From Candidatus Spongiisociaceae bacterium (GTDB lineage Bacteria > Actinomycetota > Acidimicrobiia > Spongiisociales > Spongiisociaceae): a stretch of DNA of 64,000 nt. The notes beneath the pieces are model-generated. The model saw nothing but the letters and a program-made list of their open reading frames with translations. It did no database searches and had not been told where the DNA came from. The position numbers were made by a program, and so were the translations under genes. The stretch covers positions 3,552,001 to 3,616,000 of the forward strand of contig CBDCOH010000002.1 in assembly GCA_965219685.1 (NCBI GenBank), given 5' to 3'. Within the stretch, counting starts at the first letter, position 1, and each line of letters starts with the position of its first letter. Below, piece after piece: positions 12,215 to 42,163 of this stretch.

Positions 12215-12236
12215 TCGATCAGAAGCTCTAGAACAC

Positions 12237-14558: not shown

Positions 14559-14575
14559 CACCACTCCACCCACCA

Positions 14576-20414: not shown

Positions 20415-22508
20415 ATGTTCCCGTCGAGGAGAAGTACCTGGTCGGCGGTGGTCCTGGTCTCGGTCCTGCTGGGGATCTCGTTGGTTCCGGCCTCCGCCTG
20501 GAACGGGGAAGCCGACGAGCCGGCCCTCTACTCGGCCTGCGTGGGTCCGGCGTTGGAAGAGGCCCGGTTCTCGGATGTCCGCAGGTACCCGGCCGAGATG
20601 AGGCAGGCCATAAACTGCCTCTCCCATTACGGGATCACCTACGGCACCGGCGTCGACACCTTCTCACCGGACGCTCCGGTAAGCCGCGAGCACATGGCGC
20701 TGTTCCTGGTCCGGGCGGCCGGACCGGCCGGGATCGACGTGCCCAGGGCTTCCAGTCGGCCCGCTCGGGACTTCACGGATGTGGAGGGGCTGTCCGACGA
20801 GTCGCTGGAGGCAATCGACCAACTGCTCCGGATGGGCATCACGGTCGGCAAGACCCGCTCCACGTTCGCTCCCCACGAGACGGTCACCCGAGACCAGATG
20901 GCCCTCTTCCTGTACCGGTTCCTCGATCTGGCCCCGGTCGGTCCGGGAGGGGTCGATGTCGAAGACGCCTTCCCCGACGACAGGCACTTCGAGGATCTGA
21001 GGGACTTGCCGATCAGGACTTACGACGCGGTGCGTACCCTGTTCGAGATGGGGGTGGTGGAGGGCACCTCGAGAACCACCTTCAGCCCCCACCGGCCGGT
21101 GACCCGAGCCCAGATGGCGCTGCTGATCACCCGGATGCTCGGCCACACCAACGCCCGGCCCGCCGGCCTCACCATGCAAACGGACGGCGTGGTGGTGGAC
21201 GCCGAAGCCGACGCCGAGGTGGTGATCTCGATACGGGACCGGTGGCATCGCCCCGTACCCGATGAGCTGGTGGACGTGTTCGAGTGGACCGTGCCGGACT
21301 CCCGCCGGGTCGACCCCTTCGATACGCAAGGCCGGTGCGAGGAGGACCAGGTCCGGGTCGTGTTCGGGAACGATCCCTGCGAGATCGATCAGAGCGACGA
21401 CACCACGGACCCGGACGGGAACCTGGAGTTCGAGCTGTTCGTGGACGACGACCTGACCCTGTGGGCGTGGAGCGGGGACCTGCGAGATCGATTCGATCTG
21501 GACCGCACGAACTATGTCTCGATCGAGTTCACCGCCGTGGAGCCGCCAGACGCCTTCAAGGTGACCGACGACATGCATCCCGAAGCGGAGAAGATGCTGT
21601 ACGGGAACTCGGTCACCTTCACGTTCCAGCTGGTTGACGAGGACGGGAAGCCGGTGCGCCGGGGGGACGTGGAGATCGAGATCCAGACTGAGGAGATGAG
21701 CAACAACCAGCTGGCCAGGAGGGAGACCAAGACCTACTACACGGACTCGGGCGGGGAGGTCACCCTCTACTACCGCATCAACCGCGCCCGGTACGGCGAC
21801 ACCAACACCGAAAGCGAGTTGAATGTCATCGTGCTGGACTCAGCCGGTCTGGATGTGACCGACGAGACCACAGTGGACGTCCTGGGCACGGACGTGCTGG
21901 TGTGGTCCAGAGAGGAGCGCGAGCCCACCACCTTGGTGCTGTCCCAGACGCTCGAGTACCACACCGCCGAAGCCAGCGGAGGCCGCAACCGGGTGACCGC
22001 CACCCTCATAGACCAGTACGGCGACCCGGTGCGGGGCGAGATGGTCCACTTCAGGTCGAACGACAGTGCCGGCCTGGACGCCGATTCGACGGATCCGAGC
22101 CTGGCCAAGGAGAACTACCGGAAGCCGACCAGCAGGCGAGGAGAGGCCACGGTCACCTACATCCGCGACTCCGCCACCCCGGAAACCGAAGACTTCGCTA
22201 CCACCTTCGTTGAAGGCGAGACGGTGACCGTCGCTGGGATGACCAAGCATTACTGGGTGCTCCCCGCTCCAGCAGGACAGACCAGCGGCGTACTAGTTCT
22301 CCACGACACCAGGAGGAGCACCCTCGTGTACGACCCGACGAACGCCGGTCCCTACACGATCGCTTACGACTCCAGAGACTATTTCTACCTAGGAGCCAGC
22401 CCGGAAAGCTACGACAGTTTCCGCGCGAAGGTGATGGAAGGCCAGACCCTGACGGTAGACGTGACCTCTCACAGAGCGAGCGACGTCAACACCTTCACGC
22501 GCAGCTAG
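20415..22508 (+). CDS. SLH-domain surface protein, paralog 4
   Basis: YSACVG, HTNARPAG, DQYGDPV, HYW, VNTF; RBS GGAGGA. Confidence 0.9.
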   Translation: MFPSRRSTWSAVVLVSVLLGISLVPASAWNGEADEPALYSACVGPALEEARFSDVRRYPAEMRQAINCLSHYGITYGTGVDTFSPDAPVSREHMALFLVRAAGPAGIDVPRASSRPARDFTDVEGLSDESLEAIDQLLRMGITVGKTRSTFAPHETVTRDQMALFLYRFLDLAPVGPGGVDVEDAFPDDRHFEDLRDLPIRTYDAVRTLFEMGVVEGTSRTTFSPHRPVTRAQMALLITRMLGHTNARPAGLTMQTDGVVVDAEADAEVVISIRDRWHRPVPDELVDVFEWTVPDSRRVDPFDTQGRCEEDQVRVVFGNDPCEIDQSDDTTDPDGNLEFELFVDDDLTLWAWSGDLRDRFDLDRTNYVSIEFTAVEPPDAFKVTDDMHPEAEKMLYGNSVTFTFQLVDEDGKPVRRGDVEIEIQTEEMSNNQLARRETKTYYTDSGGEVTLYYRINRARYGDTNTESELNVIVLDSAGLDVTDETTVDVLGTDVLVWSREEREPTTLVLSQTLEYHTAEASGGRNRVTATLIDQYGDPVRGEMVHFRSNDSAGLDADSTDPSLAKENYRKPTSRRGEATVTYIRDSATPETEDFATTFVEGETVTVAGMTKHYWVLPAPAGQTSGVLVLHDTRRSTLVYDPTNAGPYTIAYDSRDYFYLGASPESYDSFRAKVMEGQTLTVDVTSHRASDVNTFTRS

Positions 22509-22529
22509 CCACTAACTAGCCGCCAGCCG

Positions 22530-24623: not shown

Positions 24624-25133
24624 CCATCCAAGAGTAGAGGGATCTGGTGGATTGTGGATGGTGGAATTAGTGGCTTGTGGCGAGCCCCGAGTCTTCATCG
24701 ATCGGGGTTTGTAGGGGTTGACGGAGCGGGAGTTCTGGAATCCTGACCTGGCATTACGGCTACCGATAGCCTTGTCCTGGAGACGGTGCGAGTTCACCCG
24801 CCGCGTGAAGGCGGCCTCTACGGAGTCCATAGGGTTCAACTGGCCTGATGTACATCGGTGTGCCGGGGACATGAAGATGCTTCTATGACGCTCCCATATT
24901 GTGGAAGTCGGTTGTCGGTATCTATCCACTATTGAGATCGGGTGGAGAGATGATGTTTGTGGCCCGGCGCGCTCGAGTGCTGGGATAAGGCTGTGTTGTG
25001 TCCGGAGGCTCCGGCGGCCCGCATGGTGGTGACGCCTGCACCACCCACGATGCACCGCCAGAGGCCCCGGATCCCGATCCGATCCCAGGTCGCCCCACCA
25101 GCCACAAACCACAAGTCACAAGCCACCGTTACT

Positions 25134-27236
25134 ATGTCTCCAGGCAAGCAGACGGAGGTAGTGCGGGTGTTGCAGGAGGCTAAAGGCCGTTGGCGGTGGA
25201 TCGGGCCGATCCTCCTAGCGGTGGTCGGTTCCCTTCTGGCTGTTCCAGCGGTTCCCGTAGCCGCGCGGTCCGGGCATGCGGACCATCCCGCCCGGTATTC
25301 GGCCTGCGTGGGGGCCGCGACCAAGCCGTTCGGGTTCGATGACACGGAAGGCAACTTTGCAGCGGCGGCCATAGATTGCCTGGCGCACTACCGGATCACC
25401 AAGGGGACCTCGGCGACCTCATACAGCCCCGGCGAGGTGATACCACGGTGGCAGATGGCTCTCTTCCTCGCTCGGGCGACCGGCCCGACCGGCATCACGC
25501 TACCGCCTCCCGTCGCGCGGGGATACACCGACATCGCCCGGTTGAGTCCCGCTGCCCGCGATGCCATCCACCAGCTGGCGCAGTTGGGGATCATGCTCGG
25601 CACGTCCGCCACAACCTTCGACCCGTACGCGCCGGTGACCCGCGTGCAGATGGCGGTGCTGCTTGCCCGGTTCCTGGACGCCGCCCCTACGGGTCCGGGA
25701 GGAACGGACATCAAGGACGTGGAACCCGACGACAATGTCTTCCGTGATCTCAGCGGGGTGCCGTTCAGCACGTACCAGGCGATCCGCCGTCTCTACGAAC
25801 TGGACGTCACCGAGGGCACATCGGCCAGCACCTTCTCGCCTGCCGCGCCGGTGAGCCGGGCCCAGATGGCCGCTTTCATCACCCGGATGCTGGCCCACAC
25901 CAACGCCCGCCCGTCCGGCGTGTCCGTGCAGACTCCCGAGGAAGATGTATTCGCGAACTCTGACGCCCTCGTGCTGGTCTCGGTGCGTGACCCCAATCAC
26001 CAGCCGTTCTTCGAAGCGAGCGTGGACATCTTCATGGCCGCCGATCCCACCAAGGCCTTCGACAAGGACGGCCGCTGCACGGAGAAAGCCCTGGCTGCGG
26101 CGGGTGCGCTGGCGTGTGTCATGGACAACTCCGACCCGGAGACCGATGCCGCGGGCAACGCGTCGGTCCCGGTGGAGGTCGGCGATGACGACTCCCTGCG
26201 TATATGGGCGTGGAGAGGGGAAGACGGCGCGGCTTTCGACGAGAATACCTCCGAGGCGGCGACCGTCGACATCGAGCTTCTCAGCGACGCCACCGCCTTG
26301 GAGGTCACCGACGACCTCGCACCCACCGCCCGCAAACTCCGCTTCGGCGGCTCAGTGACGTTCACGTTCCAGTTGATCGACAGGGACGGCGACCCGGTGT
26401 CGAAGCCGGGCGTCAGCTTCAGCATCAACGTGGCGGAGTCGAGGGACAACGGCCGCACCTTCGACCGGAGCGTCATCACCAAGGAGACCGGTGTCGACGG
26501 CGCCGCCCAGGTGACCTTCCTCCACTCGGACCCCACCGCCCAGCCGGGTGACGTGGCCAGCCTCGACCTCGATGTCAGGATCGGCAACAACCTGGGCGTC
26601 GTGGACGCCACCACCATCGGGATGGTGGACGACGACGGCACCAACGACGATCCCCTGCTCGACTGGGTCGACGAACGCGCCGAGCCCACTTCGCTCGTGC
26701 TGACGGTGCCCAGGGAATACCGGGTCGCCTCCTCGGAGGACACCGGCGCGGGCGGCGCCGTGAGGGCTACCCTCACCGACCAGTTCGGCGGACCGGTGGT
26801 TCGCGAGCAGATCTCCTTCAGGTCGAGCGATCCCATGGGGGTTCCCAGCGGGGTGCGGCGCGCCACCAACTCGAGCGGCGTGGCCACCCTCCACTACCTG
26901 CGGGACTCCGCGGCGGGCGGCGTCGAGAGGATCACCGGCCAGTACGAGCGGGTGGTGGCCACCGTCCGCCAGTTCTGGGCGGGCCGGGTGACCGGCGCCG
27001 CCACCGGCTCCGGTGAGGTGAGGGTCGTGAACACGGACGACAACACGGTGATCGTGGTGGCGGGCCGCGACGTCCGGCTGGTCGCGTACGACGCCAACGA
27101 CCACCTCTACATCGGCACGGAGACGGTTCACATAGACGGATTCGAGGAAGCCCTGAGCGTCGGCGACACCCTCGCCTACGAGATCAGCAGCACGGCCGAG
27201 AACGCGATCAACACCTTCACGCTCACCGACAGTTGA
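25134..27236 (+). CDS. SLH-domain surface protein, paralog 5 (start 25134 or 25161)
   Basis: YSACVG, HTNARPSG, DQFGGPV, QFW, INTF. Confidence 0.9.
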   Translation: MSPGKQTEVVRVLQEAKGRWRWIGPILLAVVGSLLAVPAVPVAARSGHADHPARYSACVGAATKPFGFDDTEGNFAAAAIDCLAHYRITKGTSATSYSPGEVIPRWQMALFLARATGPTGITLPPPVARGYTDIARLSPAARDAIHQLAQLGIMLGTSATTFDPYAPVTRVQMAVLLARFLDAAPTGPGGTDIKDVEPDDNVFRDLSGVPFSTYQAIRRLYELDVTEGTSASTFSPAAPVSRAQMAAFITRMLAHTNARPSGVSVQTPEEDVFANSDALVLVSVRDPNHQPFFEASVDIFMAADPTKAFDKDGRCTEKALAAAGALACVMDNSDPETDAAGNASVPVEVGDDDSLRIWAWRGEDGAAFDENTSEAATVDIELLSDATALEVTDDLAPTARKLRFGGSVTFTFQLIDRDGDPVSKPGVSFSINVAESRDNGRTFDRSVITKETGVDGAAQVTFLHSDPTAQPGDVASLDLDVRIGNNLGVVDATTIGMVDDDGTNDDPLLDWVDERAEPTSLVLTVPREYRVASSEDTGAGGAVRATLTDQFGGPVVREQISFRSSDPMGVPSGVRRATNSSGVATLHYLRDSAAGGVERITGQYERVVATVRQFWAGRVTGAATGSGEVRVVNTDDNTVIVVAGRDVRLVAYDANDHLYIGTETVHIDGFEEALSVGDTLAYEISSTAENAINTFTLTDS

Positions 27237-27564
27237 GTTCCTCGGCAAAGGGGTGGACAGTGGTCGGTGGTCGGCTCCCCAGGTACGAGCACGGTCGGCG
27301 CCGGGTCGTGACCCGCAGGGCGTACCCCACGCGCTCAGCGGCCATCGTCGGAGGCGCCGCCCGATCGGATAACGGAGAGGGCCGGCTCTCGCAGCCCGAG
27401 TGAAGGAACTCACCCGAACCGGTGTTCCGGCTGATCCGGATAGATCGGGTTAGGACGACCTTTCCACTAGCCTTCACCGGTGGGACCGCCATGATCCGAG
27501 GGACCGGACATCCCGGCGGGGATTGGCTCGAAGAAACCGCAAGAGGCCGGCACATGACAGGCAC

Positions 27565-29661
27565 ATGACAGTTTTCTCGAATCGTACGGGTGCGATCCTG
27601 GCGACGACCATGGTCGCTTCCCTGCTCGTGCTGGCACCCGGACCGCTGAAGGCGGTCGACGGCAGGTCCGACAACGTGGCGGCCTACTCCGCCTGCGTGG
27701 GTCCTGCAACTGTATCGGCGGATTTCGCCGATACAGTTGATCACTTCGCCGAGAAGGCCATCGACTGCCTCGCGTACTACGGGATAACGCTGGGCACCGC
27801 CGCGGGCCAGTTCTCCCCCGACCAGTTCATCACCCGCGCGCAGATGGCCCTATTCCTCGTCCGGGCGGCCGGTCCGGCGGGGGTGAGCCTGCCCACGCCG
27901 GCGAGCCGGGGGTTCTTGGACATCTTGGGCGAGGCGCAATTCGTCCGGGATGCGATCAACCAGATCGCGGCGCTCGGAATCACGGCGGGCACGTCAGCCA
28001 CCACATTCCACCCTGACGTCCACATGGACCGCCGGACGATGGCCCTCTTCCTCTACCGGTTCCTCCTGCTGACCCAGCAGGGACCGGGCGGGACCGGCGC
28101 GGCCCTGGTGACGCCCGACGACACATTGTTCGAAGATTTGGGCAACGAGGACGATGCGGTTGTCAACGCAGTCGGCGTGCTCTACGAGATGGGCGTGACC
28201 CACGGCAAGACGGCTACGACCTTCGCTCCTTCCGACCTGGTGACTCGGGCGCAGATGGCGCTGTTCATGACCCGGGCCCTGGCGCACTCCAACACCCGGC
28301 CGGCCCGCGTGACCATCCAGAGCCGGGCCGACGTCGTTCCCAGCGGGGACACACTCGAGGTGAGTATCTCCGTCAGGGACACCAGGTTCCGCCCGAGGTC
28401 AGGGTCGCTGGTCGACGTGTTCTCCACCCCTTCCCGAGACCCGTACGCCTCGTTCGGTCAGGACGGGGACTGCCTCCGAAGGGTGGAGGTGGCCTTCGGA
28501 AGCCGAGTCTGCGTGATCGATCAATCGGACCGGCGCCTGGACCAGATGGGCAACCTGGTAGTCGTCCTCGAACCCACCGACAACCTGCTGCTATGGGCAT
28601 GGACGGGTTCTTCGGGCGAGGAGTTCCGCACCAACGCCACCGAGTACGGTTCCATCCGGATCGAGGTGCTCAAGCCTGCCACGGCGGTGAGGGTCCGTGA
28701 CGACATGAAACCTGCGGCCGCCATCCTGAAGTTGGGCGAAACCGTGGAGATGACGTTCGAACTGGTCGACGAAGACGGTCGCCCGGTCGCCGAGTCCGGG
28801 GTACGGATCCAGCTGGCCACGACCTACGAGACGAACGGCGTGATCGGCCGGACCAACATCAGGACGCACCGGACCGACGGGGATGGGCGGGTGGTGGTTC
28901 CGCTCTCGGCGGCGGACCCCGACCTCACATCCGGTGGCGACTCGGTGAAGGTCGACATCGATGTGCTGGTGCAGGCGCTCGAGGTGGTGGATCGGAGCAG
29001 CCTGCGGGTGGTGGAGAACGATGACGACGACAGCACCGACACCCTGATCACCTGGTCCGAGGCGGCCCCGGTGGCCTGGACCCTCCGGTTGCGCCAAGCC
29101 TCCACGTACAACCAGCTGGACGATTCCATCCTCGGTCCGGTGAACGTGGTCCGGGCGACGCTCAGGGACCAGTACGGCGATCCGGTGGAGGCCGCCATGA
29201 TCCAGTTCTCCTCGGATCAGCCCTTGGGCCTTGGTACGACCGGTGTGACCAGGACCGCAGGGGTCGACGGGGTGGCCACCCTGCGGTATATGTGGAACGG
29301 TTCCGGGTCGGCGTCCGAACTCATCTCCGCCGAGGCCACAGGCTTGGACGTCGAGGCTGTGTCCGTTCACCACTACTGGGCGGTTCTCCAGGCGGGAGGC
29401 AGGTCCGCCCTGGCGGTCCCCATCCTGGCGAGCGACATCTACAGGAACGTCATCCTCCACGACGCCAGGTCGCCGCGGCTGCTCCGTTACGACGCCAACG
29501 ACCGTTTCTCGATCCGGGACACCGTCGTCAGCATGACCGCCTTCGAGGAGGCCCTTACCAGCGGCGACTACAGCCGGATCACCTACACCAAGTACTTCGA
29601 CGAGCCCGAAGATGTCAGCTTCTTCGACCTCACCAACACCAGGATTTTCGACGACGCCTAG
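27565..29661 (+). CDS. SLH-domain surface protein, paralog 6
   Basis: YSACVG, HSNTRPAR, DQYGDPV, HYW. Confidence 0.9.
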   Translation: MTVFSNRTGAILATTMVASLLVLAPGPLKAVDGRSDNVAAYSACVGPATVSADFADTVDHFAEKAIDCLAYYGITLGTAAGQFSPDQFITRAQMALFLVRAAGPAGVSLPTPASRGFLDILGEAQFVRDAINQIAALGITAGTSATTFHPDVHMDRRTMALFLYRFLLLTQQGPGGTGAALVTPDDTLFEDLGNEDDAVVNAVGVLYEMGVTHGKTATTFAPSDLVTRAQMALFMTRALAHSNTRPARVTIQSRADVVPSGDTLEVSISVRDTRFRPRSGSLVDVFSTPSRDPYASFGQDGDCLRRVEVAFGSRVCVIDQSDRRLDQMGNLVVVLEPTDNLLLWAWTGSSGEEFRTNATEYGSIRIEVLKPATAVRVRDDMKPAAAILKLGETVEMTFELVDEDGRPVAESGVRIQLATTYETNGVIGRTNIRTHRTDGDGRVVVPLSAADPDLTSGGDSVKVDIDVLVQALEVVDRSSLRVVENDDDDSTDTLITWSEAAPVAWTLRLRQASTYNQLDDSILGPVNVVRATLRDQYGDPVEAAMIQFSSDQPLGLGTTGVTRTAGVDGVATLRYMWNGSGSASELISAEATGLDVEAVSVHHYWAVLQAGGRSALAVPILASDIYRNVILHDARSPRLLRYDANDRFSIRDTVVSMTAFEEALTSGDYSRITYTKYFDEPEDVSFFDLTNTRIFDDA

Positions 29662-31603: not shown

Positions 31604-32245
31604 CTACCGCCCGAAGAACTTGTCGAACAGTTCAATCTGGCCGTCTCGAAGGCTGGCAACTTCCGTCTTGACGCCGGCGACGTCGTTTTGGAGACCGCCG
31701 ATGTCCTCTCGAATGCTGGCGACCTCGGTTTTGACGCCGGCGACGTCGTTTTGGAGACCGCCGATGTCCTCTCGAATGCTGGCGACCTCGGTTTTGACGC
31801 CGGCGACGTCGTTTTGGAGACCGCCGATGTCCTCTCGAATGCTGGCGACCTCGGTTTTGACGCCGGCGACGTCGTTTTGGAGACCGCCGATGTCCTCTCG
31901 AATGCTGGCGACCTCGGTTTTGACGCCGGCGACGTCGTTTTGGAGACCGCCGATGTCCTCTCGAATGCTGGCGACCTCGGTTTTGACGCCGGCGACGTCG
32001 TTTTGGAGACCGCCGATGTCCTCTCGAATGCTGGCGACCTCGGTTTTGACGCCGGCGACGTCGTTGCGGATGGTGGCCACGTCCTGTTGGAGGTCGGTGA
32101 TGTCCTTGCGGATGGTTTGCTGCCCGGTCTCGATGTTGTCCAGCCGGTCGAGGATCTGTGTGAGAATGCCAGCTAGCGCCTCGAAGGCCGCGTCTGTCCT
32201 GGCATTGCCCGTTGTGGGGAACCGAACGACTGCGGATTGGGCCAT
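31604..32245 (-). CDS. Coiled-coil protein with six perfect 21-aa repeats
   Basis: NDVAGVKTEVASIREDIGGLQ x6; RBS AAGGGGA. Confidence 0.75.
   Translation of the reverse strand: MAQSAVVRFPTTGNARTDAAFEALAGILTQILDRLDNIETGQQTIRKDITDLQQDVATIRNDVAGVKTEVASIREDIGGLQNDVAGVKTEVASIREDIGGLQNDVAGVKTEVASIREDIGGLQNDVAGVKTEVASIREDIGGLQNDVAGVKTEVASIREDIGGLQNDVAGVKTEVASIREDIGGLQNDVAGVKTEVASLRDGQIELFDKFFGR
31670..32065. repeat. Perfect 63-bp tandem repeat, 6.3 copies
   Basis: Unit GACGCCGGCGACGTCGTTTTGGAGACC...CCTCGGTTTT. Confidence 0.95.
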
Positions 32246-32585
32246 GAACGTTCCCCCTTACCTGTGATCGCTTATAGGGTAACTATACCACCCGACCGTT
32301 AGATACCGTCAACAAGGTTGGACATCTAACTGGTTCAAGTTTTTCGACTCCAACGAAAAGTGGAAATACCAGGCGCTTTGCGTGGGGCGGATCAATACGG
32401 ATGGGACGAGGATGATCGCCGTGTCCGGACCGGCGGCGATGTTTGTGCTCGCGGCACCCTTGACTATGCACGATGGGTGTGACAGCGGCAACCCCTACTC
32501 GCACTCGAACGGGACTAACCGGTGGGCACACAGGATCCGCCGCTCGAGACCCCGCCTAGGTGCCGGCGGGGCTGCCAGTGGGTCC

Positions 32586-33701
32586 CTACTCCAGCCTGTC
32601 GACCAATCTCTGGAACTTGCCGGCGGAGAAGGACACGGGAGTGTCCTCCACCCGGTTGCCGGTCTTGTCGATCAGCAGGGCCCGGGATGTGTACGGGCCG
32701 CCGTAATGTCTCCACACCGCGTTGGAGCCGTCCCAGAGGTTGGTGAAGGTCAGCCCGTAACGTCGAACGAAGCCCTCGCCGGAACTCCGGGGATTCCAAT
32801 GATCCGGGTTGATACCCACCACTGTGACCTTGTCTGTGTTCTTGCGAGCGAACTGCTCGACCTCCGGAGCATGCCTCCGGCAAGTCGGTCACCATTCCGC
32901 CCAGAACCAGAACAGCACCCCCTTGTCGCCCGTGAACAGCGAGCGGAGGTTGACGGTCTCGCCGCTGGAGAGGTCGGTCAGGTCGACATCGGGGACGTCG
33001 TCGGAGATGGTGACCGGTTCGGGCTCGGTCGTCTGGTCGTCCTGTTTGAGCAGCGCCCGGTGCAGGAAGGTGGCCATCTCGGCTCGGGTGACCGAATCGT
33101 GGGGGCAGTAGCGGAGCGGGCCGGTCGCGCATCCGGTGGTGATCCCGGCTGTGGCCAGGGCGTCGATGTTCGGCGCGTGGGTGTTGCCTGCGGTGTCCGT
33201 GAAGCCGGCCGGGCCGGCGGGTTCGAGAGCGAAGGCACGGGTGAGGAAGGTGGCCATCTCGGCTCGGGTGACGGCCTGGTCGGGGCAGTAGCGGAGCGGG
33301 CCGGTGGCGCATCCTTTGGTGATCTCACGGTCGGCGAGTTCCTCCGCGTAGCGCGACCACCACTCTGAGGCGTCCACGTCGTCGAAGCGGGAGGTCCCTC
33401 CGGCGGTGACGTCGCCGCCGAGGACCCGGATCAGCCATACGGCCATGACCCATCGCTCGATCTTCTCCTGCGGGCAGAATTCGCCTTCCCCGCACTCGGT
33501 GCCCTCGAACACGCCCGACTCGGCCAGGGCATTGATCGCCGGCTCGTGGAAGTCGCCCGCACCGACATCGGAGAACCCGTCCGCGCCCCCGGCCGGCGGG
33601 GAGGCCAGAAGCGACGCCAGCAGTACCACGACCAGCGCCAACGGGGCGGCCCGACGGCGCCCGGGCGATGCTGTGTGCTCACGGGTTGTCACGGCTGCCA
33701 C
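32586..33701 (-). CDS. Predicted selenoprotein: signal peptide + 3 SLH + TlpA/thioredoxin-like domain (U-P-T-C)
   Basis: In-frame TGA at 32889-32891 in WFWAEW-U-PTCRRHAPEVEQF; frame stays open to stop at 32586 and completes the redoxin fold. Confidence 0.85.
32845..32859 (-). promoter_or_regulatory. Candidate SECIS hairpin 1
   Basis: CGAGC-AGUUC-GCUCG at +30 to +44 from UGA. Confidence 0.6.
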
Positions 33702-33868
33702 CCCCCTGTCGGGTCGGGCCTCATGATAGTTCTCCGGATGGGTCCGGTGTCGGATACCACCCGGCGCCCGTGGACGGGATGCCGGCCAGCCGTGTCGACG
33801 AGGCCGGAGGATTCAGGACCGGGTCCGGGGCGATCCCCCACGTGCGCAGTCGGTCGTCACGAACCGGA

Positions 33869-34978
33869 CTACTCCAACGCCGCCAGCAACCTGTCGATCA
33901 GGTCCGGGTCGAAGTACGAGTATTGAGGCGAGGGCACCGGGTTGCCCTCCCGGTCGACGAAGCGGAACCTCACCCGGTCGCCCTGCTTGCGCAGCAGCCG
34001 GAACTCGGACCAGGACCCGATCCCGTAGTGCGCTGTCGTTGCCCAGGGCTGATCGTCGCGAAGGATCGGAAAGGTCAAGCCGTGGGTGGCCACGAAGTTC
34101 GTGATCGCGTTAGGAGAATCCTCGGAGTTGATCCCTATGACCTTGACCCTATGGGTGTTGTCACGAGCGAACTGCTCGACCGCGGCCGCTTCCCGCCGGC
34201 ATCTCGGTCAGCCAGGCGAGAAGAACCAGAGCAGGAGGGGCTTGTCGCCGGTGACGAACGAGCGGAGGCTCACGGTGTCTCCCGTGGAGACGTCGGTCAG
34301 GTCTGTGTCGGGGACATCGTCGGAGATGGCGACCGGTTCGGGTCCGGTCATCCGGTCGTTCTGTTTGAGCAGGGCCTGGTGGAGAAAGGTGGCCATCTGG
34401 GCTCGGGTGACCGCCTCGTTAGGGCAGTAGCGGAGGGGGTCGGTCGCGCATTCGCGGGTGATCCCGGCTGCGGCTAGGGCGTCGATGTCCGGCGCGTGGT
34501 GGTCGCCTTCGGTGTCCGTGAAGCCAGCCGGGCTGGCGGCTTCGAGGGCGAAGGCCCGGGTGAGGAAGCTGCCCATCTGGGCTCGGGTGACGTCCTGGTC
34601 GGGGCAGTAGCGGAGGGGGCCGGTGTCGCATCCTTTGGTGATCTCGCGGTCGGCGAGTTCCTCCGCGTGGCGCGACCACCATTCGGAGGCGTCCACGTCG
34701 GCGAAGCGGGAGGTCCCTCCGGCGGTGACGTCGCCGCCGAGGACTCGGATCAGCCATACGGCCATGACCCATCGCTCGATCGGGTCCTGGGGGCAGAATT
34801 CGCCTTCCCCGCACTCGGTGCCCTCGAACACGCCCGACTCGGCCAGGGCGTTAATCGCCGGTTCATGGATGCCGCCCGCACCGACGTCGGAGAACCCGTC
34901 CGCGGCCCCGGCGGGGAGCGGACCCAGCACCGAGGCCACCAACACCACGGCTACCAGGACGGTCGGCCAACCCGTCAT
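33869..34978 (-). CDS. Predicted selenoprotein: signal peptide + 3 SLH + TlpA/thioredoxin-like domain (U-P-R-C)
   Basis: In-frame TGA at 34208-34210 in WFFSPG-U-PRCRREAAAVEQF; frame open to 33869. Confidence 0.85.
34164..34178 (-). promoter_or_regulatory. Candidate SECIS hairpin 2
   Basis: Identical 15-mer at +30 to +44 from UGA. Confidence 0.6.
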
Positions 34979-35055
34979 GCGGCGGAGGCGTCAACCTATT
35001 GGGGCGGCGAATACCGGACCAGGTCCGATAGACCTGGTCGGCAGTGGACGCGGCG

Positions 35056-36090
35056 TCATACCAACTCGTCCAATAGGTTCTCGACGCGGGTCCGGTCGTA
35101 GGGTTCGGTCCTCTCCATCAGCCGGTTGCCGAACGGATCCAGGAGCAGGAAGTCGGACGTGGCGTCCATCTCGTAGTGTTCCCATGCCTCACGGGAGTCG
35201 CTCCAGAGCACAGTGAAGGTGGTGCCCTTGTCAGCTACGAACTCCTGGGCTATCTCCAGGGTTCCTATGCCGCCGACGCCTATGACGATGAGGCGGTGGG
35301 AGTTGTCCCGAGCGAACTGCTCGATGGCCGGAGCCTCTTCGTTGCACGTCTCTCAGAACGGCGACCAGAACCAGAACATGAGCGGCTTCTCGCCCTTGAC
35401 CACCGACCGCAGGCTCACCAACTCGCCGGTAGCCGTGTCGAACATCCGGACGTCGGGCACGTCGTCGGAGATCTCGATCGTGAGCGGCGCCTCGGTGGTG
35501 GTCGGCGTGGGTGCCTGGGTGGTGGTAGGCGCCTGGGTGGTGGTGGTCGGTGGCTCGGTGGTGGTGGTCGGCGCTTGGGTGGTCGTGGTGGGCGCGTCGG
35601 TCGTGCTGGTCGTCGGCGCCTGGGTGGTGGATGTCGCCGGTGGTTCCTCGACGGTCGTGGAAGTCACGCCGGTCCCGGCCGTGTCGACGGTGGTGGAGGT
35701 GACTGCGGCGACCGTCGTGGCTGCGGCGGCCGTGGTGGTGGTGCTGTCCGGGACGGCCGATGTCGTCGTGGCGGCCCGGGCCGCGGTGGTGCTGGTTTCC
35801 GGCGCCGTCCCGTCCTCGGAGGGGTCGCGGTCAGCCACGCTGGTCCCGGGGTCGGGCATGGTGGTCCCGGTCGTGGTGGAGGCGCCGGCATCCACGGCGT
35901 CGGCTGCCACCGTGGTGGTGGTTCCGCTCCCGCAGGCGGCGACCATCAGGGCCGCTGCCACCACCCCGGCGTACCAGCCGGGCAACGGACGGGTCGGCCG
36001 TCGCTCCCGTGGCCGACGAGACCGCCTCGGACCCGCGCCCCGGTCCGGATCGACCGTGGCGCTCCCGCCTTCGTCGGCGTGCTGGCCCAT
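35056..36090 (-). CDS. Predicted seleno-lipoprotein: lipobox + Thr-rich stalk + TlpA/thioredoxin-like domain (U-E-T-C)
   Basis: VAAC lipobox; in-frame TGA at 35353-35355 in WFWSPF-U-ETCNEEAPAIEQF; frame open to 35056. Start uncertain. Confidence 0.85.
35309..35323 (-). promoter_or_regulatory. Candidate SECIS hairpin 3
   Basis: Identical 15-mer at +30 to +44 from UGA. Confidence 0.6.
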
Positions 36091-36340
36091 GGAACAACGG
36101 CTCGGGCTGCGACGAACCGCGCGGGTGTCGCCTGTCACCCACCTTCTCGCTGTCACCGGCTAAGCATAGAGGCTGGTGAGAGTTGCCGATCGGGCAGTGC
36201 AGGGCCACCCGAGGGCCGCAGACGCCGGCTGCGCCGCCGCCGCCGAGGCTCGACCGCCCGCGGAGGGGTCGCGCAAGGGCAACCCGGCCGGATGGCGGTC
36301 GTATCCTCCCGCTACGATCCGGTTGGCCGATCAGGTACCG

Positions 36341-38869
36341 GTGTTGAGAGAAATCCTCAGAAGGGAGGGCGGCGCCCTCCGAGCCTCGTGGCTTGTCCTC
36401 GCGGGCGTCTCCGCAGCGCTGCTGCTGCTTGCCACGCCCGCGCGGGCGGAGTCGCCCTGCGGCTCCCCGACGGTGATTCCCGACGGCTCGGAAGCTCTGC
36501 GGTCCGACTGCGAGGTGCTGTGGGAGTTCTACACCGGTCTCGAAGACCCGGGCGTACTGGACGATGCCGACAACCCCAACGCCTGGCTACCTACCATCCC
36601 GTTCGTCGAGTGGCAGGGACTCGAGGTCCGGAACGACCGGGTCGTAATCCTCTCCCTGTCCGGAGCCGAGTTGAAGGGACCCGTCTCCCCCGGCCTCGGT
36701 GGCCTGGCCGGCCTGCGGGCCCTCTACCTGAACTCCAACCAACTGACCGGTCCGATCCCCCCCGAACTGGGTGACCTCTCGGAGCTCGTCCTGCTGCAAC
36801 TGGACGACAACGGGTTCACGGGACCGATACCCCCGGAGATAGGGCAACTGGCGGAGCTGGTCTACCTTCTCCTGAACAGCAATGACCTCACGGGACCGAT
36901 CCCGCCACAGTTAGGCGACCCCACCAAGCTGAAGTGGCTGTACCTGTTCGGCAACGAGCTGAGCGGGCCGATACCCGAGGAGCTGTCGCGCCTGGACGAC
37001 CTCGAGAAACTCGCCCTGGGCGACAACCAGCTCACCGGGTCCATCCCGCCGGAGCTGGGGAGGCTCGTGAACCTGACCCTGCTGGCGCTCAACGACAACC
37101 AACTCAGCGGGTCCATCCCGCCGGAACTGGAGTCCCTGACCAAGCTGGAACAGCTGTATCTCCGCGGCAACCGGCTGACCGGTCCCATCCCTCCCGGCCT
37201 CGATCAGGTGCTCGAGCCCGCCGACAAGGACGAGATCGATCCCTTCTGGGCGGATCCGCTGGGTCTCATCGCCCACGCGGCCTACTACCGCCAGTACAGC
37301 CTCGGCTCGACTGTCTGGCACGTGTGGTTCTGCGATGTGCCGCTGGGCGACGCGCCCGTCGTGGCGAACGAGGTGGTGAGGCGCCTGAACCGGGAGGTGG
37401 TCTCCTACTTCGAGTGGGTGTCGGGCGACCGGTACCGGCCGAGCTTCCAAGCGGAGGGTTGGCTGGCCGGTGACAGCCGGTCGGACTGTGAGGCCGCGCT
37501 GGAGGCCGAGGACCCCGAGATGCCCATGCTCCTGGTCGAGAACAGCCCCGCCAACGACGGCTACGCGGCGGGCCGGGGACTGGTGGTGCTAGGAGGCGGC
37601 ACGGTCGTCCCGACACCGGGGTTCCGCCAGGCGCGCCTGTCGACCGTGGTCCACGAGATGGGCCATGCGTTGGGCTTCCCGCACTCCTTCGGCGGCAGGA
37701 TCAGATGGTCGCCCGAGGGCCAGCTCAGCGGGGTCTACGAGTACGACAACCCGATGGACATGATGAGCGGCGACCTCGCCCTGGGGCTCGACACCGGGAC
37801 GATCGCCGCCAACCGGTACGCGGCGGGCTGGATCGAACCGGACGAGGTGGCGGTCCACGGGGCGGGAACGACAGCCGTCTACGAGCTCCGCCCGCCTGGT
37901 GCGGGCGGCACCCAGATGCTGGTCCTGCCGGGGAGGAGGCAGGGCGTGTTCACGGTGCTGGGAGCCAGGGTCGCCCTGGGTCATGATGTGGCCATCCCGC
38001 GAGCGGGGGTCGAGGCCTACCGCATCGACCAGAGGGAAGCGGCGTGCACCTACCCCTGGCGGGGCGCTTGCTCGGGAACCGAGCGGCGTACCCAGCCCTA
38101 CCCGCCCGCCGAGCCGGGAGCAGGTTACGGCGACGATCTGGGCAGCCGCGGCCGGCGCCGCCTGGTCGATCACGTGTACCGCCCGGGCGACGTGTTCGAG
38201 ATCGGCACGACCACGATCGAGGTGGTCGAGAAGGTCGGCAACAACTACCGGGTGCGGGTGGCGGACTCCTCTGCGCCGCCGCCCCCGCCGGAGCCCGCCC
38301 CCGGTCCGTCGTTCGACGGGCGCTTCTCCGACGACGACGGCAGCGTCCACGAAGCCGACATCGAAACGATCGCCGCGCTGGGCATCACCGTCGGCTGCAA
38401 CCCGCCCGACAACAACCGTTACTGCCCCGGCGACGTCGTGACCCGGGCGCAGATGATGGCCTTCCTGGCCCGCGCCCTCGGCGAGGAGGGCGACCCCGAG
38501 GTGACTACCGGCCGGTTCTCCGACGTGCCCGACAACGCCTGGTACCTGCCGTACCTGGAGCGGCTGGCCGACCTCGGGGTGGTCGAACCCTACGAGGACG
38601 GCACCTTCCGCCCTGACGAGCCCATCACCCGGATCGACATGGCCGTGCTCCTAATGCGAGCATTCCCGGGCATCGACGAGGTGACCGAACCCGAGGGAGT
38701 CTTCGTCGATGTGCCCGCAGACGCTCCGCACGCGGGGGCGGTCGAGGGCATCCTGGCGGCGGGGGTCACCAAAGGATGCTCCGAGGACCCACTCTCCTAC
38801 TGTCCCGGCGGGGCCGTGCCCCGCGACCAGATGGCGTCCTTCCTGGCGCGAGCCCTGAAAGCCGGCTAG
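36341..38869 (+). CDS. Secreted plant-type LRR + zinc metalloprotease + 3 SLH protein (start uncertain)
   Basis: LxxLxLxxNQLTGxIPPELG repeats; HEMGHALGFPH; C-terminal SLH repeats. Confidence 0.88.
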   Translation: MLREILRREGGALRASWLVLAGVSAALLLLATPARAESPCGSPTVIPDGSEALRSDCEVLWEFYTGLEDPGVLDDADNPNAWLPTIPFVEWQGLEVRNDRVVILSLSGAELKGPVSPGLGGLAGLRALYLNSNQLTGPIPPELGDLSELVLLQLDDNGFTGPIPPEIGQLAELVYLLLNSNDLTGPIPPQLGDPTKLKWLYLFGNELSGPIPEELSRLDDLEKLALGDNQLTGSIPPELGRLVNLTLLALNDNQLSGSIPPELESLTKLEQLYLRGNRLTGPIPPGLDQVLEPADKDEIDPFWADPLGLIAHAAYYRQYSLGSTVWHVWFCDVPLGDAPVVANEVVRRLNREVVSYFEWVSGDRYRPSFQAEGWLAGDSRSDCEAALEAEDPEMPMLLVENSPANDGYAAGRGLVVLGGGTVVPTPGFRQARLSTVVHEMGHALGFPHSFGGRIRWSPEGQLSGVYEYDNPMDMMSGDLALGLDTGTIAANRYAAGWIEPDEVAVHGAGTTAVYELRPPGAGGTQMLVLPGRRQGVFTVLGARVALGHDVAIPRAGVEAYRIDQREAACTYPWRGACSGTERRTQPYPPAEPGAGYGDDLGSRGRRRLVDHVYRPGDVFEIGTTTIEVVEKVGNNYRVRVADSSAPPPPPEPAPGPSFDGRFSDDDGSVHEADIETIAALGITVGCNPPDNNRYCPGDVVTRAQMMAFLARALGEEGDPEVTTGRFSDVPDNAWYLPYLERLADLGVVEPYEDGTFRPDEPITRIDMAVLLMRAFPGIDEVTEPEGVFVDVPADAPHAGAVEGILAAGVTKGCSEDPLSYCPGGAVPRDQMASFLARALKAG

Positions 38870-39063: not shown

Positions 39064-40620
39064 TCAGCAGAAGGGGAGGTCCATCAAGCTGAAGTCGTTG
39101 CTGGTGTCCATCAGTCCCTGCGGTATGCATCCCTGAAACTGGTTCCCGCCGTAGAACCGCACGTAGTTGATCTCGGGAAGGTCACCCAGGGAGGCGGGGA
39201 TGCGACCCTGCAACCTGTTGTTGGCCACATCCAGGAGGCGAAGTTTGGTGAGATTCCCCAGCTCGTCGGGAATCTCACCCGTGAGTCGGTTTTCGTTTAG
39301 CCACAGGTTGGCGAGGCGCGACAGTCTTCCAAGCTCCGGGGGGATGGGGCCTGTCAGTTGGTTCCTGGAAAGGATCAGCACCTCGAATTCCTCCAGGTCG
39401 CCCAACTCCGAAGGTATGGGACCGCTCAATCGGTTCCCCCCAAGGGACATCCACCAGAGCGACTTCACCGTCCCGAGTTCGGCCGGGATGGCCCCTGTCA
39501 GCACGTTGTCGCGCAGGGACAGGACACCCAGGTTGGCGAACTCGCCGAATTCAGGTGGGATGCCTCCACTCAGCGCGTTGCCTCCCAGGGACAGCTGTTC
39601 CAGGCGGGTGAGTCCGGTCAACTCAACCGGGATGGGTCCGTCGAGCAGGTTGTCGGCGAGGATGAGGGTCCTGAGTTGCTGGAGAGAGCCCAATTCGGAG
39701 GGCACCGACCCGGTGAGCCCATTCTCGCTCAGGTCAAGGGTCTCGAGCGCGGAGAGATCGGCCAGGATCGGCGGGAAGGGTCCCTCCAGCCCGTTGCCCT
39801 TCAGTTCCAGCTTCTTGACACGGTCGTCATCGTCGGTGGTGACACCGCCCCAAGCTTCCAGTTGGCCCCCTGTCAACCAGTTCTTCCTGCTGGTCCAGTT
39901 GTTGCCACTCGTCGTGTTGTAGAGGACCGCGAGGATGGCCCGGTCCGAGGTGCGGATGGCTCGGTGCAGGAACGTCGCCATCTCGGCGCGGGCCACGGGT
40001 CTGTCCGGGCAGTACTTCAGAGGGTCGGTGCTGCAGCCCGCGGTGATCCCGGCCGCGGCCAGCGCGTCGATGGCGGCTTCGTGGGTGTCGCCTCCGGTGT
40101 CGACGAACCCGGCGGAGGGCGCTTCTTCTATCTTCAGGGTGCGCACTAGGAACGTCGCCATCTCTCCCCTCGTCACCGCCCGATCGGGGCAGTAGCTCGG
40201 AGGGTCCGTCTTGCATCCGATCGTGATCTCGAGCCGGGCGATGCGCTCGGCGTAGGGTGACCACCACTCATCGGCGGAGACATCGGCGAATCGGGAGGTG
40301 TCGGTGTTGTAAGGCTTGTAGCCGAACGCCCGCACCAGCCAGACCGCCATCACCCAGCGGTCGACCGGATCCCAGGGGCAGAACATGTCCGTGTCGCACT
40401 CGGTGTCCTCGAAGTAGCCCCACTCGGCGAGGGTGTCGACCGCGGCCTGGAGTCCACCCGCCTCGGCCGAATCCGTGAAGAAGCCTTCCTCCTCGGTCGC
40501 CGCCGCGTCCGGGGCGAGCACCGTGCCGACCAGCGCCGCGACCAGGAGGAGGATCGTGCCGACGAGGAGGCGGTGCGGGACTGATGAAGACTGCCGGAGA
40601 TCGGTCTGCGGGATGCTCAT
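39064..40620 (-). CDS. Secreted 3 SLH + plant-type LRR protein
   Basis: Signal peptide, SLH (GC...YCP...TRGEMATFL), LYNTTSGNNW...WGGVT cap, 24-aa LRRs. Confidence 0.88.
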   Translation of the reverse strand: MSIPQTDLRQSSSVPHRLLVGTILLLVAALVGTVLAPDAAATEEEGFFTDSAEAGGLQAAVDTLAEWGYFEDTECDTDMFCPWDPVDRWVMAVWLVRAFGYKPYNTDTSRFADVSADEWWSPYAERIARLEITIGCKTDPPSYCPDRAVTRGEMATFLVRTLKIEEAPSAGFVDTGGDTHEAAIDALAAAGITAGCSTDPLKYCPDRPVARAEMATFLHRAIRTSDRAILAVLYNTTSGNNWTSRKNWLTGGQLEAWGGVTTDDDDRVKKLELKGNGLEGPFPPILADLSALETLDLSENGLTGSVPSELGSLQQLRTLILADNLLDGPIPVELTGLTRLEQLSLGGNALSGGIPPEFGEFANLGVLSLRDNVLTGAIPAELGTVKSLWWMSLGGNRLSGPIPSELGDLEEFEVLILSRNQLTGPIPPELGRLSRLANLWLNENRLTGEIPDELGNLTKLRLLDVANNRLQGRIPASLGDLPEINYVRFYGGNQFQGCIPQGLMDTSNDFSLMDLPFC

Positions 40621-40759
40621 GGAAGGCCTCAACTGTGGTGCTCGGGTGCTTCCGGACGCTACCACTTGTCTCCAGGATCGGGCATTCCCGCAATGGTGGG
40701 GATGGCTTGCTCGGGACGCCGACGTACGTTCGGACCCGGACGGGTATAGGGTTCCCATC

Positions 40760-42163
40760 ATGCGACCGGTACTCACCTCCGAGCAGTCCCGCCGCCAGGA
40801 CGCTCTCGCCGATGTGGACCCGCGGACGCTGCTGGACCGGGCCGGGCTGGCGGTGGCCCTGCAGGCGGCTGCACTCGGGGCCGGCTACGGATGCCGGGTG
40901 GCGGTGCTCGCCGGTCCCGGTAACAACGGCGGGGACGGATACGTGGCCGCCCGTCACCTCTACGGGCGGGGAGCGGCCGTCGACATCTATCCGCTGACCG
41001 CGCCGAGGAGCGGTCCGGCACGATGGGCACACCGGCTGGCCTCTAGGGAAGGAGTGGCCGTCCGGGACTGGGACGACCCTCGACCGGCGGATCTGGTGAT
41101 CGACGCCCTGTTCGGGGCTGGGTTCCGGGGAACGTTGCCCGACCTCTCCCCGTGGCGGGAGGCCCCGGCATGCATGGCCGTGGACGTCCCGTCGGGACTG
41201 GACGCCTCTACCGGCGAGGCCGTGGACGGCGCCCTGGTAGCCGACGCGACCGTGACCTTCCACGGGTACCGGGTGGGCCACCTCGTGGGTCAGGGTCCGG
41301 ACCTCTGCGGGGAGGTGGTGGTGGCGGACATCTGGCTGCCCGACGTGGAGCCCGAGATGTGGCTGTGCGAGGAGGCGGACGCCCCCCTCCCGGCGCGGAG
41401 CCGCACCGGCCACAAGTGGTCGGCCGGGTCGGTCCTGGTGATCGGCGGCTCCGACGGCCTGGACGGGGCGGCCACCCTCACCGCCCGGGCGGCGCTGCGG
41501 GCCGGGGCGGGGGCGGTGATGATCGCCTGCCCGCCCACCGTCGAGGAGAAGGTGCGGGCGCCCGAGATCATGACCAGGGCGATCGGCGAGAGCCGCTCGT
41601 TCTCGGCCGCCGACCTTCCCCAGGTGCTGGCCCTGGCGGACCGTTTCGACCTGGTGATCATCGGGCCCGGCCTCGGATCGGCCGCCGACCTGGGAGGCTT
41701 CGTCAGCGGGTTCTTGGAGGGCTGCGGCGGTCCGGTGGTGGCCGACGCCGACGCCCTCAACGCCTTGGACGGGCCTCGGGACCTGGTCAGGGAAGGGGAG
41801 ACCGTGATCACCCCCCACACCGGAGAGTTCTCCCGCCTGACCGGCCGGGCCGCCTCCTACCAGGAAGCCGCCTCGCTCTCGGCCTCCACGGGGGTGACCG
41901 TCCTGCTGAAGGGCGCTCCCACCTTCGTCATGGGAGCGGCGCGCTGGGTGGTGAACTCCGGAGGTCCCGAACTCTCGACCATCGGGACCGGGGACGTGCT
42001 GGCGGGGATGATCGGCGCCTTCTGGGCCTCGGGGCTGGACGGTCCGGCGGCGGCCCGGTCAGGGGCGTACTGGCACGGCCGGGCCGGGGCCGACCTGCAA
42101 CAGACCCGCACGGTCACCGCGGACGTGCTCGCCGATCACATCGCCGAGACCACTCGCCGGTGA
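40760..42163 (+). CDS. nnr: Bifunctional NAD(P)H-hydrate epimerase/dehydratase
   Basis: GPGNNGGDG, DALFGAG, AVDVPSG, GPGLG, DADAL, TPHTGEF, GTGDVLAG. Confidence 0.95.
   Translation: MRPVLTSEQSRRQDALADVDPRTLLDRAGLAVALQAAALGAGYGCRVAVLAGPGNNGGDGYVAARHLYGRGAAVDIYPLTAPRSGPARWAHRLASREGVAVRDWDDPRPADLVIDALFGAGFRGTLPDLSPWREAPACMAVDVPSGLDASTGEAVDGALVADATVTFHGYRVGHLVGQGPDLCGEVVVADIWLPDVEPEMWLCEEADAPLPARSRTGHKWSAGSVLVIGGSDGLDGAATLTARAALRAGAGAVMIACPPTVEEKVRAPEIMTRAIGESRSFSAADLPQVLALADRFDLVIIGPGLGSAADLGGFVSGFLEGCGGPVVADADALNALDGPRDLVREGETVITPHTGEFSRLTGRAASYQEAASLSASTGVTVLLKGAPTFVMGAARWVVNSGGPELSTIGTGDVLAGMIGAFWASGLDGPAAARSGAYWHGRAGADLQQTRTVTADVLADHIAETTRR

Follow-up and report, generated by a model that had tools for sequence, protein, structure and literature searches.

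The best match to the genes reported here among described proteins is Mycobacterium tuberculosis DsbE (MPT53, structure 1LU4; phmmer E-value 1.4e-13), with DsbF (3IOS; E-value 1.5e-12) next. Both are actinobacterial secreted proteins of the CcmG/TlpA-like kind with a WFW-x-x-W-C-P-x-C active site; both are reportedly oxidases, and DsbF is said to be a lipoprotein-type form. Here we compare these and other known systems with three genes, g1, g2 and g3, that span 32586-36156 of a 64,000-nucleotide (nt) stretch of contig CBDCOH010000002.1, assembly GCA_965219685.1, from Candidatus Spongiisociaceae bacterium (this whole stretch is the window, to which all positions refer unless marked otherwise). 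We consider it very likely that g1–g3 are intact genes for predicted exported selenoproteins, in each of which one UGA is recoded to selenocysteine (Sec, U) and which are held at the cell surface. The redox domain of g1 shares 29-31% identity with DsbE and DsbF, but these have Cys rather than Sec, keep the cis-Pro (as QP) where g1–g3 have Ser, and carry no S-layer homology (SLH) repeats, stalk or RCC1 fusion.

Bacillus subtilis ResA, Bradyrhizobium TlpA and Escherichia coli CcmG are membrane-tethered extracytoplasmic proteins with a thioredoxin fold, an N-terminal β-hairpin and a W-x-x-W-C-x-x-C site, and their structures match the g1 domain with template modelling (TM) scores of 0.77-0.80. 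The ResA sequence model NF002854 is matched with an E-value of 1.3e-12 and 48 bits, under the family cut-off of 170. Unlike these proteins, g1–g3 lie away from ccdA and resBC, have Sec and no cis-Pro, and have SLH or lipid anchors in place of a transmembrane helix. The closest analogue of the g3 architecture is Streptococcus pneumoniae Etrx1 (4HQS; TM 0.76), a surface thioredoxin lipoprotein of a single-membrane bacterium, which has Cys instead of Sec. Etrx1 is said to feed a surface methionine sulfoxide reductase via CcdA.

Among selenoproteins, a 2026 review (PMC13188914) lists UxxC thiol-disulfide isomerase-like (cd02966), redoxin (PF08534) and peroxiredoxin (Prx)-like proteins as predicted prokaryotic families. 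In the portion of the review available to us, the listed UxxC families share with g1–g3 the Pfam/CDD superfamily, the U-x-x-C motif and a single Sec, in line with the statement in a first-pass annotation of this DNA that UxxC thioredoxin-fold proteins are a major class of bacterial selenoprotein; the terms S-layer, lipoprotein, periplasm, secreted and signal peptide do not occur in that portion. A preprint from 2026 that deals with Actinomarina describes Sec machinery and ~5 predicted selenoproteins per genome, and the part of it available to us does not mention the g1–g3 family. The NCBIfam models NF041054 (ResA-like WAxxUGC) and NF053656 (TUGYCR redoxin) resemble g1–g3 in having Sec in the active-site turn, but their motifs are UGC and TUGYC as against U-x-x-C here, and they score 21 bits against a cut-off of 300 and 16.2 against 100, respectively.

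Three tandem genes with one in-frame TGA each

The open reading frames (ORFs) and their translations place g1, g2 and g3 head-to-tail on the minus strand, with one in-frame TGA apiece.

32586..33701, minus strand: g1, putative signal peptide, three SLH repeats and UxxC redoxin domain; 371 aa, stop TAG
32889..32891, minus strand: predicted Sec codon TGA of g1, residue 271, FWAEW-U-PTC; 100 codons follow
32655..33002, minus strand: thioredoxin-fold (Redoxin) domain of g1, from Pfam, AlphaFold2 and Foldseek
33869..34978, minus strand: g2, putative signal peptide, three SLH repeats and UxxC redoxin domain; 369 aa, stop TAG
34208..34210, minus strand: predicted Sec codon TGA of g2, residue 257, FFSPG-U-PRC; 112 codons follow
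35056..36156, minus strand: g3, putative lipoprotein with Thr/Pro-rich stalk and UxxC redoxin domain; stop TGA at 35056-35058
35353..35355, minus strand: predicted Sec codon TGA of g3, residue 268, FWSPF-U-ETC; 98 codons follow

The Pfam matches to Redoxin and AhpC-TSA run across every TGA (residues 234-349 in g1, 218-319 in g2 and 231-343 in g3). Bit scores for g1, g2 and g3 are 58, 46.5 and 37.1 for Redoxin (PF08534; gathering score 26.6) and 55.9, 51.8 and 36.2 for AhpC-TSA (PF00578; gathering score 26). With Sec read at the TGA, g1 conforms to the W-x-x-W-C-x-x-C site, and g2 and g3 retain U-x-x-C without the second Trp. Depending on whether translation begins at GTG 36156 or at ATG 36090, the g3 product is 366 or 344 aa long. 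The first-pass annotation had placed the TGAs (32889, 34208, 35353) at the first Cys of a CxxC motif, with 98-112 further open codons and products of ~344-371 aa; the ORFs, Pfam spans and homologue column bear out the placement, and the codon counts and predicted lengths listed above agree with its figures.

The same annotation had proposed looking for selA, selB, selD and a tRNA-Sec, and the full set is present on the window's own 4.39-Mb contig, every member above its curated cut-off. The tRNA-Sec scores 77 bits against a cut-off of 47 and has the anticodon TCA; selA (435.7 bits) lies directly beside selB (322.7 bits), and selD gives 366.9 bits. The selD gene (C2:2564589-2565512, locus L019) itself has an in-frame TGA, at GAG-U (FSPGAG-U-ASKLG). 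The co-occurrence of the family with selA was set aside as uninformative, as selA is found in 58 of the 61 related genomes described below.

The three frames would be open whichever sense residue the TGA was given, so we considered whether an altered code or a suppressor tRNA might insert another residue, such as Trp, Cys or Gly, at the UGA. There is no genome-wide reassignment of UGA, since TGA ends 885 of 1349 long ORFs with high GC content at third codon positions, making it the commonest stop in the genome, and the release factor 2 gene prfB is present (462.6 bits). Both g3 and a fourth paralogue (described below) terminate in TGA, and reading TGA as sense joins unrelated frames. Together with the dedicated tRNA-Sec and SelB, and with homologues that align Cys at the redox site in a classic Sec/Cys pair, this makes non-Sec decoding extremely improbable.

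Homologues were collected from 61 related genomes with the g1 domain as query (E <= 1e-10) and also from 301 genomes spread evenly over the class (E <= 1e-15). Of the related genomes, 27 have matches, including all seven others of the same genus, all twelve of a second genus and all three of another family, and exactly one in-frame TGA is found in 51 of the 57 matching places. The class-wide sample gave matches in 24 genomes, with one TGA in 29 of 33 places. In the 39 distinct homologues read, the active-site column holds U (TGA) in 33 and Cys in six, and TGA is never found at another column. The 33 TGA sequences come from 28 genomes in five families, and matches with a single TGA occur in further families of the class; because related genomes are not independent, these counts overstate the number of evolutionary events. 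The column thus holds Cys or TGA and not the Trp or variable residues that the first-pass annotation had named as the alternative outcome, and the TGA is conserved there far more than chance would give. That the TGAs are inactivating nonsense mutations or assembly errors has nothing in its favour except the stop codons themselves, and is scarcely credible given a codon fixed at one column throughout this set, a frozen RNA motif downstream of it, and ratios of nonsynonymous to synonymous substitution rates (dN/dS) below 1 after it.

These ratios were obtained by comparing each gene with homologues of its own type. After the TGA, dN/dS is 0.24-0.55 for g1 against 13 homologues (99-100 codons) and 0.17-0.41 for g3 against six; the 43 codons before the g1 TGA give 0.17-0.52 in the same 13 comparisons. 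Synonymous divergence (dS) is 0.3-1.4, and the frame is broken in none of the 19 pairs over the 97-100 codons compared. The first-pass annotation had suggested a test for purifying selection downstream of the TGA, and the overall range of 0.17-0.55 shows such selection and not neutral decay.

The sequence after the TGA also completes a confidently predicted TlpA/DsbE-like fold. An AlphaFold2 model of the g1 domain, built from a 37-sequence alignment, has a predicted local distance difference test score (pLDDT) of 96 and a predicted TM score (pTM) of 0.91, and comprises a thioredoxin core with an N-terminal β-hairpin and a central insert; helix 45-60 of the model begins directly after U44. A Foldseek search with this model ranks 1LU4 (TM 0.80) and 3IOS (TM 0.83, root-mean-square deviation 1.8) first, the same top two as a sequence search of the PDB, with ResA chains, a Corynebacterium diphtheriae DsbF homologue and CcmG at lower ranks and Etrx1 at rank 20; the TM scores of the top hits, ResA included, span 0.78-0.83.

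These data bear on the idea that UGA is here mainly a stop, so that the functional product is a ~256-270-aa SLH or stalk protein and the thioredoxin half is a relic or a separate small ORF. Public gene calls do split the family in this way, into SLH proteins of 206-350 aa and downstream ORFs of 78 aa, and in systems already described Sec insertion has to compete with termination. The truncated product would, however, stop short of the second active-site Cys by four residues and leave out most of the fold, and the 78-aa ORF begins in mid-strand at an internal GTG. As the Cys-coding homologues are continuous, and as purifying selection persists after the TGA at dS values of up to 1.4 with all 19 pairs unbroken, we regard termination as the main outcome as very improbable.

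A maximum-likelihood (ML) tree places the 33 Sec sequences and one Cys sequence (L057) in a single clade (support 99/93). Within this clade L057 is nested among the Sec forms, with one of them, L058, as its sister (support 99/90), and the three most distant Cys sequences fall outside the clade; as the tree is rooted at the midpoint and the outgroup branches are long, deep placements are unsure. Genes of the g1, g2 and g3 types group separately. The g1-type and g3-type groups each contain sequences from both genera, and the paralogues are therefore old. The g3-type clade has ten members (support 100/99), and g2 groups (support 98/91) with an SPY-U/C-PTC pair that comes from two other genomes. 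A g3-type gene adjoins a g1-type gene in seven of eight genomes of this genus and in two genomes of the second; the intervening g2 copy is seen in this genome and in G002. The family is present across several Acidimicrobiia families, its named relatives being metagenome-assembled genomes of that class, and 17 SLH-bearing g1-type homologues were read from the loci of relatives. Genes of the g1 type end in TAG, TAA or TGA at one shared position.

A frozen hairpin downstream of the TGA

The mechanism that we propose would have SelB deliver Sec-tRNA to the UGA via a stem-loop in the mRNA within the coding sequence, with SelA, SelB, SelC and SelD being the organism's own. The best candidate for this signal, a selenocysteine insertion sequence (SECIS), is a distal hairpin of the form CGAGC-AGUUY-GCUCG, identified from alignments, RNAalifold, pair counts and a motif scan; a second, proximal hairpin lies closer to the TGA.

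32844..32860, minus strand: distal hairpin of g1, SECIS candidate, (U)CGAGC-AGUUC-GCUCG(C)
34163..34179, minus strand: distal hairpin of g2, SECIS candidate
35308..35324, minus strand: distal hairpin of g3, SECIS candidate
32864..32880, minus strand: proximal GC-rich hairpin of g1, CCGGAG-GCAUG-CUCCGG, candidate lower or alternative SECIS stem (z-score -2.95 for the 60-nt stretch)

The 57 nt from each TGA were aligned for the 33 Sec sequences, the proteins of which are ~40% identical. Columns 32-47 of this alignment, TCGAGC[A/G]GTT[C/T]GCTCG, are invariant in all 33. They form a 5-6-bp stem with an AGUUY loop starting 34 nt after the UGA, which is the only helix that RNAalifold retains. We see that the Ala at +14 is encoded by GCT in 33 of 33 sequences, although GCT makes up 8.1% of the Ala codons in the genome and other Ala columns are mostly GCC or GCG; the Glu codon at +11 is always GAG (33 of 33), those at +6 and +9 being mixed, and for the Val at +10 all 21 of 21 have GTC. 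Because these synonymous sites at +10, +11 and +14 are frozen, the constraint acts on the RNA.

When six more distant sequences are added to the 33, 97.3% of cells pair in the distal stem, compared to 18-44% if the partner is shifted along. In two sequences a compensatory change has turned C-G into U-A, by a synonymous GTC-to-GTT change plus CGA to CAA, and it probably arose only once. The genome (4.42 Mb) contains four copies of the 16-nt motif, each of them 32 nt past the TGA of g1, g2, g3 or the fourth paralogue. In a comparison with 500 synonymous recodings per gene, the g3 distal hairpin is stabler than 98% of them. The apical loop of a bacterial SECIS lies about 16-37 nt from the UGA, and the distal loop at 34 nt falls within this range.

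Most sequences also have a proximal GC-rich hairpin between the TGA and the distal element, with its loop at about +18-23. Its register slides among homologues (pair sums 40-44), giving no single consensus structure, and its stability is not clearly past the synonymous-recoding null; it may serve as a spacer or lower stem. We infer that the distal hairpin is the SECIS, modestly favoured over the proximal hairpin or a composite of both. Free energy was rejected as a basis for this call, being weak or non-significant for g2, the fourth paralogue and the proximal hairpin. No Rfam family covers the hairpins in a scan of 32400-36300 at E <= 1, and a plus-strand match to P5 sRNA (E 0.61) was dismissed as chance. 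A perfect 9-bp inverted repeat, GACCAGGTC-TATCG-GACCTGGTC, lies at 35017-35039 on the minus strand, 17 nt past the g3 stop in the 75-nt gap between g3 and g2. This repeat is a candidate terminator or attenuator that lacks a T-run, and a promoter and terminator scan gave nothing on the minus strand.

Proposed surface tethering and redox chemistry

The first-pass annotation had described two of the products as tethered by SLH domains and the third as a lipoprotein on a Thr-rich stalk. Pfam finds three SLH repeats in each of g1 and g2, and the translation of g3 contains both a putative lipobox Cys and the stalk.

33411-33578, 33228-33389 and 33048-33206, minus strand: SLH repeats of g1 (19.8, 33.2 and 21.5 bits singly)
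34730-34897, 34547-34708 and 34367-34525, minus strand: SLH repeats of g2 (20.9, 25.4 and 24.9 bits singly)
35932..35934, minus strand: putative lipobox Cys of g3, …LMVAA-C-GSG, read by eye (V-A-A-C, residues 72-75)
35491..35931, minus strand: Thr/Pro/Ala-rich low-complexity stalk of g3, ~150 residues, from the translation

One g1 repeat (19.8 bits) is slightly under the Pfam gathering score of 20.8, and the g1 SLH region as a whole gives 56.6 bits. SLH repeats bind wall polysaccharide in other bacteria, and the three repeats in each of g1 and g2, which follow a putative hydrophobic N-terminal signal sequence read by eye, would hold these products at the cell surface. The anchoring of SLH domains requires a pyruvylated wall polymer from a CsaB-type enzyme. 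The genome has 45 SLH matches and two matches to the pyruvyl-transferase family PF04230 (99.2 and 83.8 bits); this broad family also matches nine of 14 control genomes, so that the matches indicate compatibility with SLH anchoring and nothing more. The g3 product would be held by an N-terminal lipid anchor and its Thr-rich stalk. Its V-A-A-C site can be compared with the lipobox pattern [LVI][ASTVI][GAS]-C, and lipobox-like Cys sites (LLSC, LTAC and AAAC) can be read by eye in g3-type homologues and in the more distant Sec relatives (f11 type).

The three genes lie in an island of genes for SLH surface proteins, with further SLH matches upstream at about 10238-15499.

20415-29661: three SLH+Big_1 genes
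36176-38869: gene for an SLH protein with leucine-rich repeats (LRR) and a zinc-protease-like HEMGHALGF motif
39064-40776: LRR-SLH gene

A 213-aa ORF at 31604-32245 on the minus strand has seven near-identical 21-residue repeats of NDVAGVKTEVASIREDIGGLQ, and its Pfam matches are of coiled-coil type only.

Several observations weigh against our reading of g1–g3 as surface selenoproteins with a distal SECIS. The genome is rated 5.9% contaminated, yet every piece used here sits on one contig. One relative, G026 (96% complete, 160 contigs), has a g3-type TGA gene (locus L048) and no selA match at E <= 1e-30; this is the sole exception seen, and is probably due to an assembly gap. Hairpin stability is weak in such GC-rich sequence, with a z-score of -0.74 for g2 against dinucleotide shuffles, and against synonymous recodings only the g3 distal hairpin (0.02) and the whole g1 stretch (0.014) give values under 0.05. 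In the distal stem, four of six pairs are constant throughout, hence the one compensatory event, and the distal loop lies at 34 nt, as compared with GGUCU-type loops at ~20-25 nt in the genome's other candidate selenoprotein genes. The export calls were made by eye, the g2 signal peptide lacks a basic n-region, and the start of g3 could be either of the two codons given above. Finally, the cis-Pro of thioredoxin-fold oxidoreductases is missing, as the alignment puts Ser at that column in g1 (YTS), g2 (SWS) and g3 (ATS), a placement made from alignment alone.

32655-32720: cis-Pro region of g1
33950-34030: cis-Pro region of g2
35130-35200: cis-Pro region of g3

The Ser is shared by every member that was read in the two nearest genera, and Sec relatives further away, the Cys homologues and DsbE/DsbF all retain Pro. 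A fifth paralogue (below) also keeps it (YQPVG), as read from the unaligned sequence. Because the cis-Pro is missing, we assign g1–g3 to the Pfam superfamily and treat them as a divergent branch of DsbE/DsbF-like type, not as orthologues of ResA or TlpA. The resolving Cys of the U-x-x-C pair is invariant.

The function that we favour for g1–g3 is thiol-disulfide exchange. Each product would display a DsbE/DsbF/TlpA-like domain in which the attacking residue is the Sec of U-x-x-C, and the Sec selenolate may speed exchange on extracytoplasmic or surface proteins. The SLH and RCC1 surface proteins of the organism itself, the SLH ones being unusually rich in Cys, are likely clients for disulfide chemistry. 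A Cys pair (G-C...R-Y-C-P) is inserted in each SLH repeat read, namely in g1, g2, the fourth paralogue and the LRR neighbour (38400-38869), and we know of no such pair within classical SLH domains. RCC1 repeats have two Cys each. For redox partners, the genome has one CcdA, unlinked to the trio, and one DsbB homologue beside a thioredoxin-like gene; the match to DSBA is weak, and a genome search for VKOR gave no match. Electrons could thus flow in either direction, with the proteins acting as oxidases like DsbE/DsbF or as CcdA-fed reductases like ResA and Etrx.

Because the cis-Pro column holds Ser, peroxide-linked chemistry stays a rival function, in which g1–g3 are true selenoproteins that act on peroxide, as surface Sec peroxidases like Prx or glutathione peroxidase (GPx) or as peroxide-driven disulfide formers. 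AhpC-TSA scores about as well as Redoxin, Sec stands at the place of the peroxidatic Cys of Prx, and in g2 and g3 the -3 position (S-P-x-U) is Ser where Prx has Thr. Structures of Bcp and thiol peroxidase are among the fold matches (TM 0.73-0.77), the cis-Pro that has been lost is one that substrate-binding oxidoreductases keep, and VKOR was not found while the single CcdA is unlinked. On the other hand, the invariant resolving Cys of the CxxC pair and the W-x-x-W-U-x-x-C site argue against a peroxidase, the best sequence and fold matches are DsbE, DsbF and ResA and not Prx, and classical partners are available in CcdA and in DsbB with its adjacent thioredoxin-like gene. We therefore consider peroxide chemistry unlikely, although it carries some weight. 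A more elaborate scenario, which we hold to be rather improbable, is a wall-resident layer of selenoenzymes: SLH- or lipid-tethered U-x-x-C proteins, with cis-Pro replaced by Ser, would use peroxide or other host-derived oxidants to make or mend disulfides in Cys-rich SLH, RCC1 and LRR proteins, an extracellular oxidative folding in the style of GPx7/8, with no membrane partner and with an unusually distal, family-specific SECIS.

Paralogues, public annotation and novelty

The genome contains five paralogues, a larger set than the three that the first-pass annotation had described.

C2:236733-240359 (locus L070:472-3516), minus strand: fourth paralogue, 1015 aa, 12 RCC1 repeats (348.6 bits), SLH and redoxin domains
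C2:638118-638867 (locus L071:219-968), plus strand: fifth paralogue, 250-aa putative lipoprotein (KFRR...VLAAC), Thr/Ala/Pro stalk, LFWAEW-U-PAC

The fourth paralogue has the active site FWASW-U-PLC, the same hairpin motif as g1–g3 and a terminal TGA, and its public counterpart is a 350-aa fragment only. The fifth lacks the frozen distal motif and instead has an AGUUG loop ~20 nt past the UGA (about 20-25). A crude genome-wide screen, the thresholds of which missed g1–g3 and which we use for context only, gave 51 candidates that are mostly same-frame neighbours, and suggests a sizeable selenoproteome. Its candidates include an FdhA-like protein (SCNRT-U-HAPSV), a TlpA-type WSSW-U-GC, U-GSC, NPH-U-SSS and several C-x-x-U (C2 437446, 2675030, 2289075, 4055349 and 4242156, plus strand; 3483659 and 1715895, minus strand), and some have a GGUCU-loop hairpin ~20 nt past the UGA.

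The first-pass annotation had expected standard gene callers to truncate all three genes. A survey of a 5.8-billion-cluster protein set found 62 homologues, all of them fragments, and no full-length annotated relative of g1 is among the 62. All 35 matches of near length (206-350 aa) end at the TGA. Of the 27 shorter ones (56-200 aa), most are 60-80-aa ORFs past it, and no single one spans over 53% of the query region. Where named, these are called 'S-layer homology domain-containing protein' or 'hypothetical protein', and one is from Candidatus Spongiisocius sp., an Acidimicrobiia genus.

The first-pass annotation had also known of no described SLH-selenoprotein fusion. Our literature search, judged by titles and abstract openings, found no publication linking selenoproteins to SLH anchoring, and a search on Spongiisocius and on sponge symbionts with selenocysteine, at the level of titles and listings, found nothing relevant. 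This part of the novelty claim stands for the literature searched, and the UxxC TlpA-like and redoxin chemistry was already known. We accordingly rate the SLH and RCC1 fusions, the change from cis-Pro to Ser and the frozen distal hairpin as new, and the UxxC redoxin kind of selenoprotein as known.

As far as the literature searched and the available portion of the 2026 review show, this family would supply the first SLH-tethered selenoproteins, an RCC1-SLH-Sec fusion among them. Sec chemistry would then operate extracellularly, in the wall zone. The family also provides a natural test of SECIS geometry, with a frozen hairpin 34 nt from the UGA beside a variable one at the usual distance, and natural variation already includes the Sec, Cys and cis-Pro/Ser forms that a comparison would require. 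As the whole family is mis-annotated in public data and the NCBI selenoprotein models miss it, neither the surface redox capacity of these Acidimicrobiia nor their demand for selenium is at present visible.

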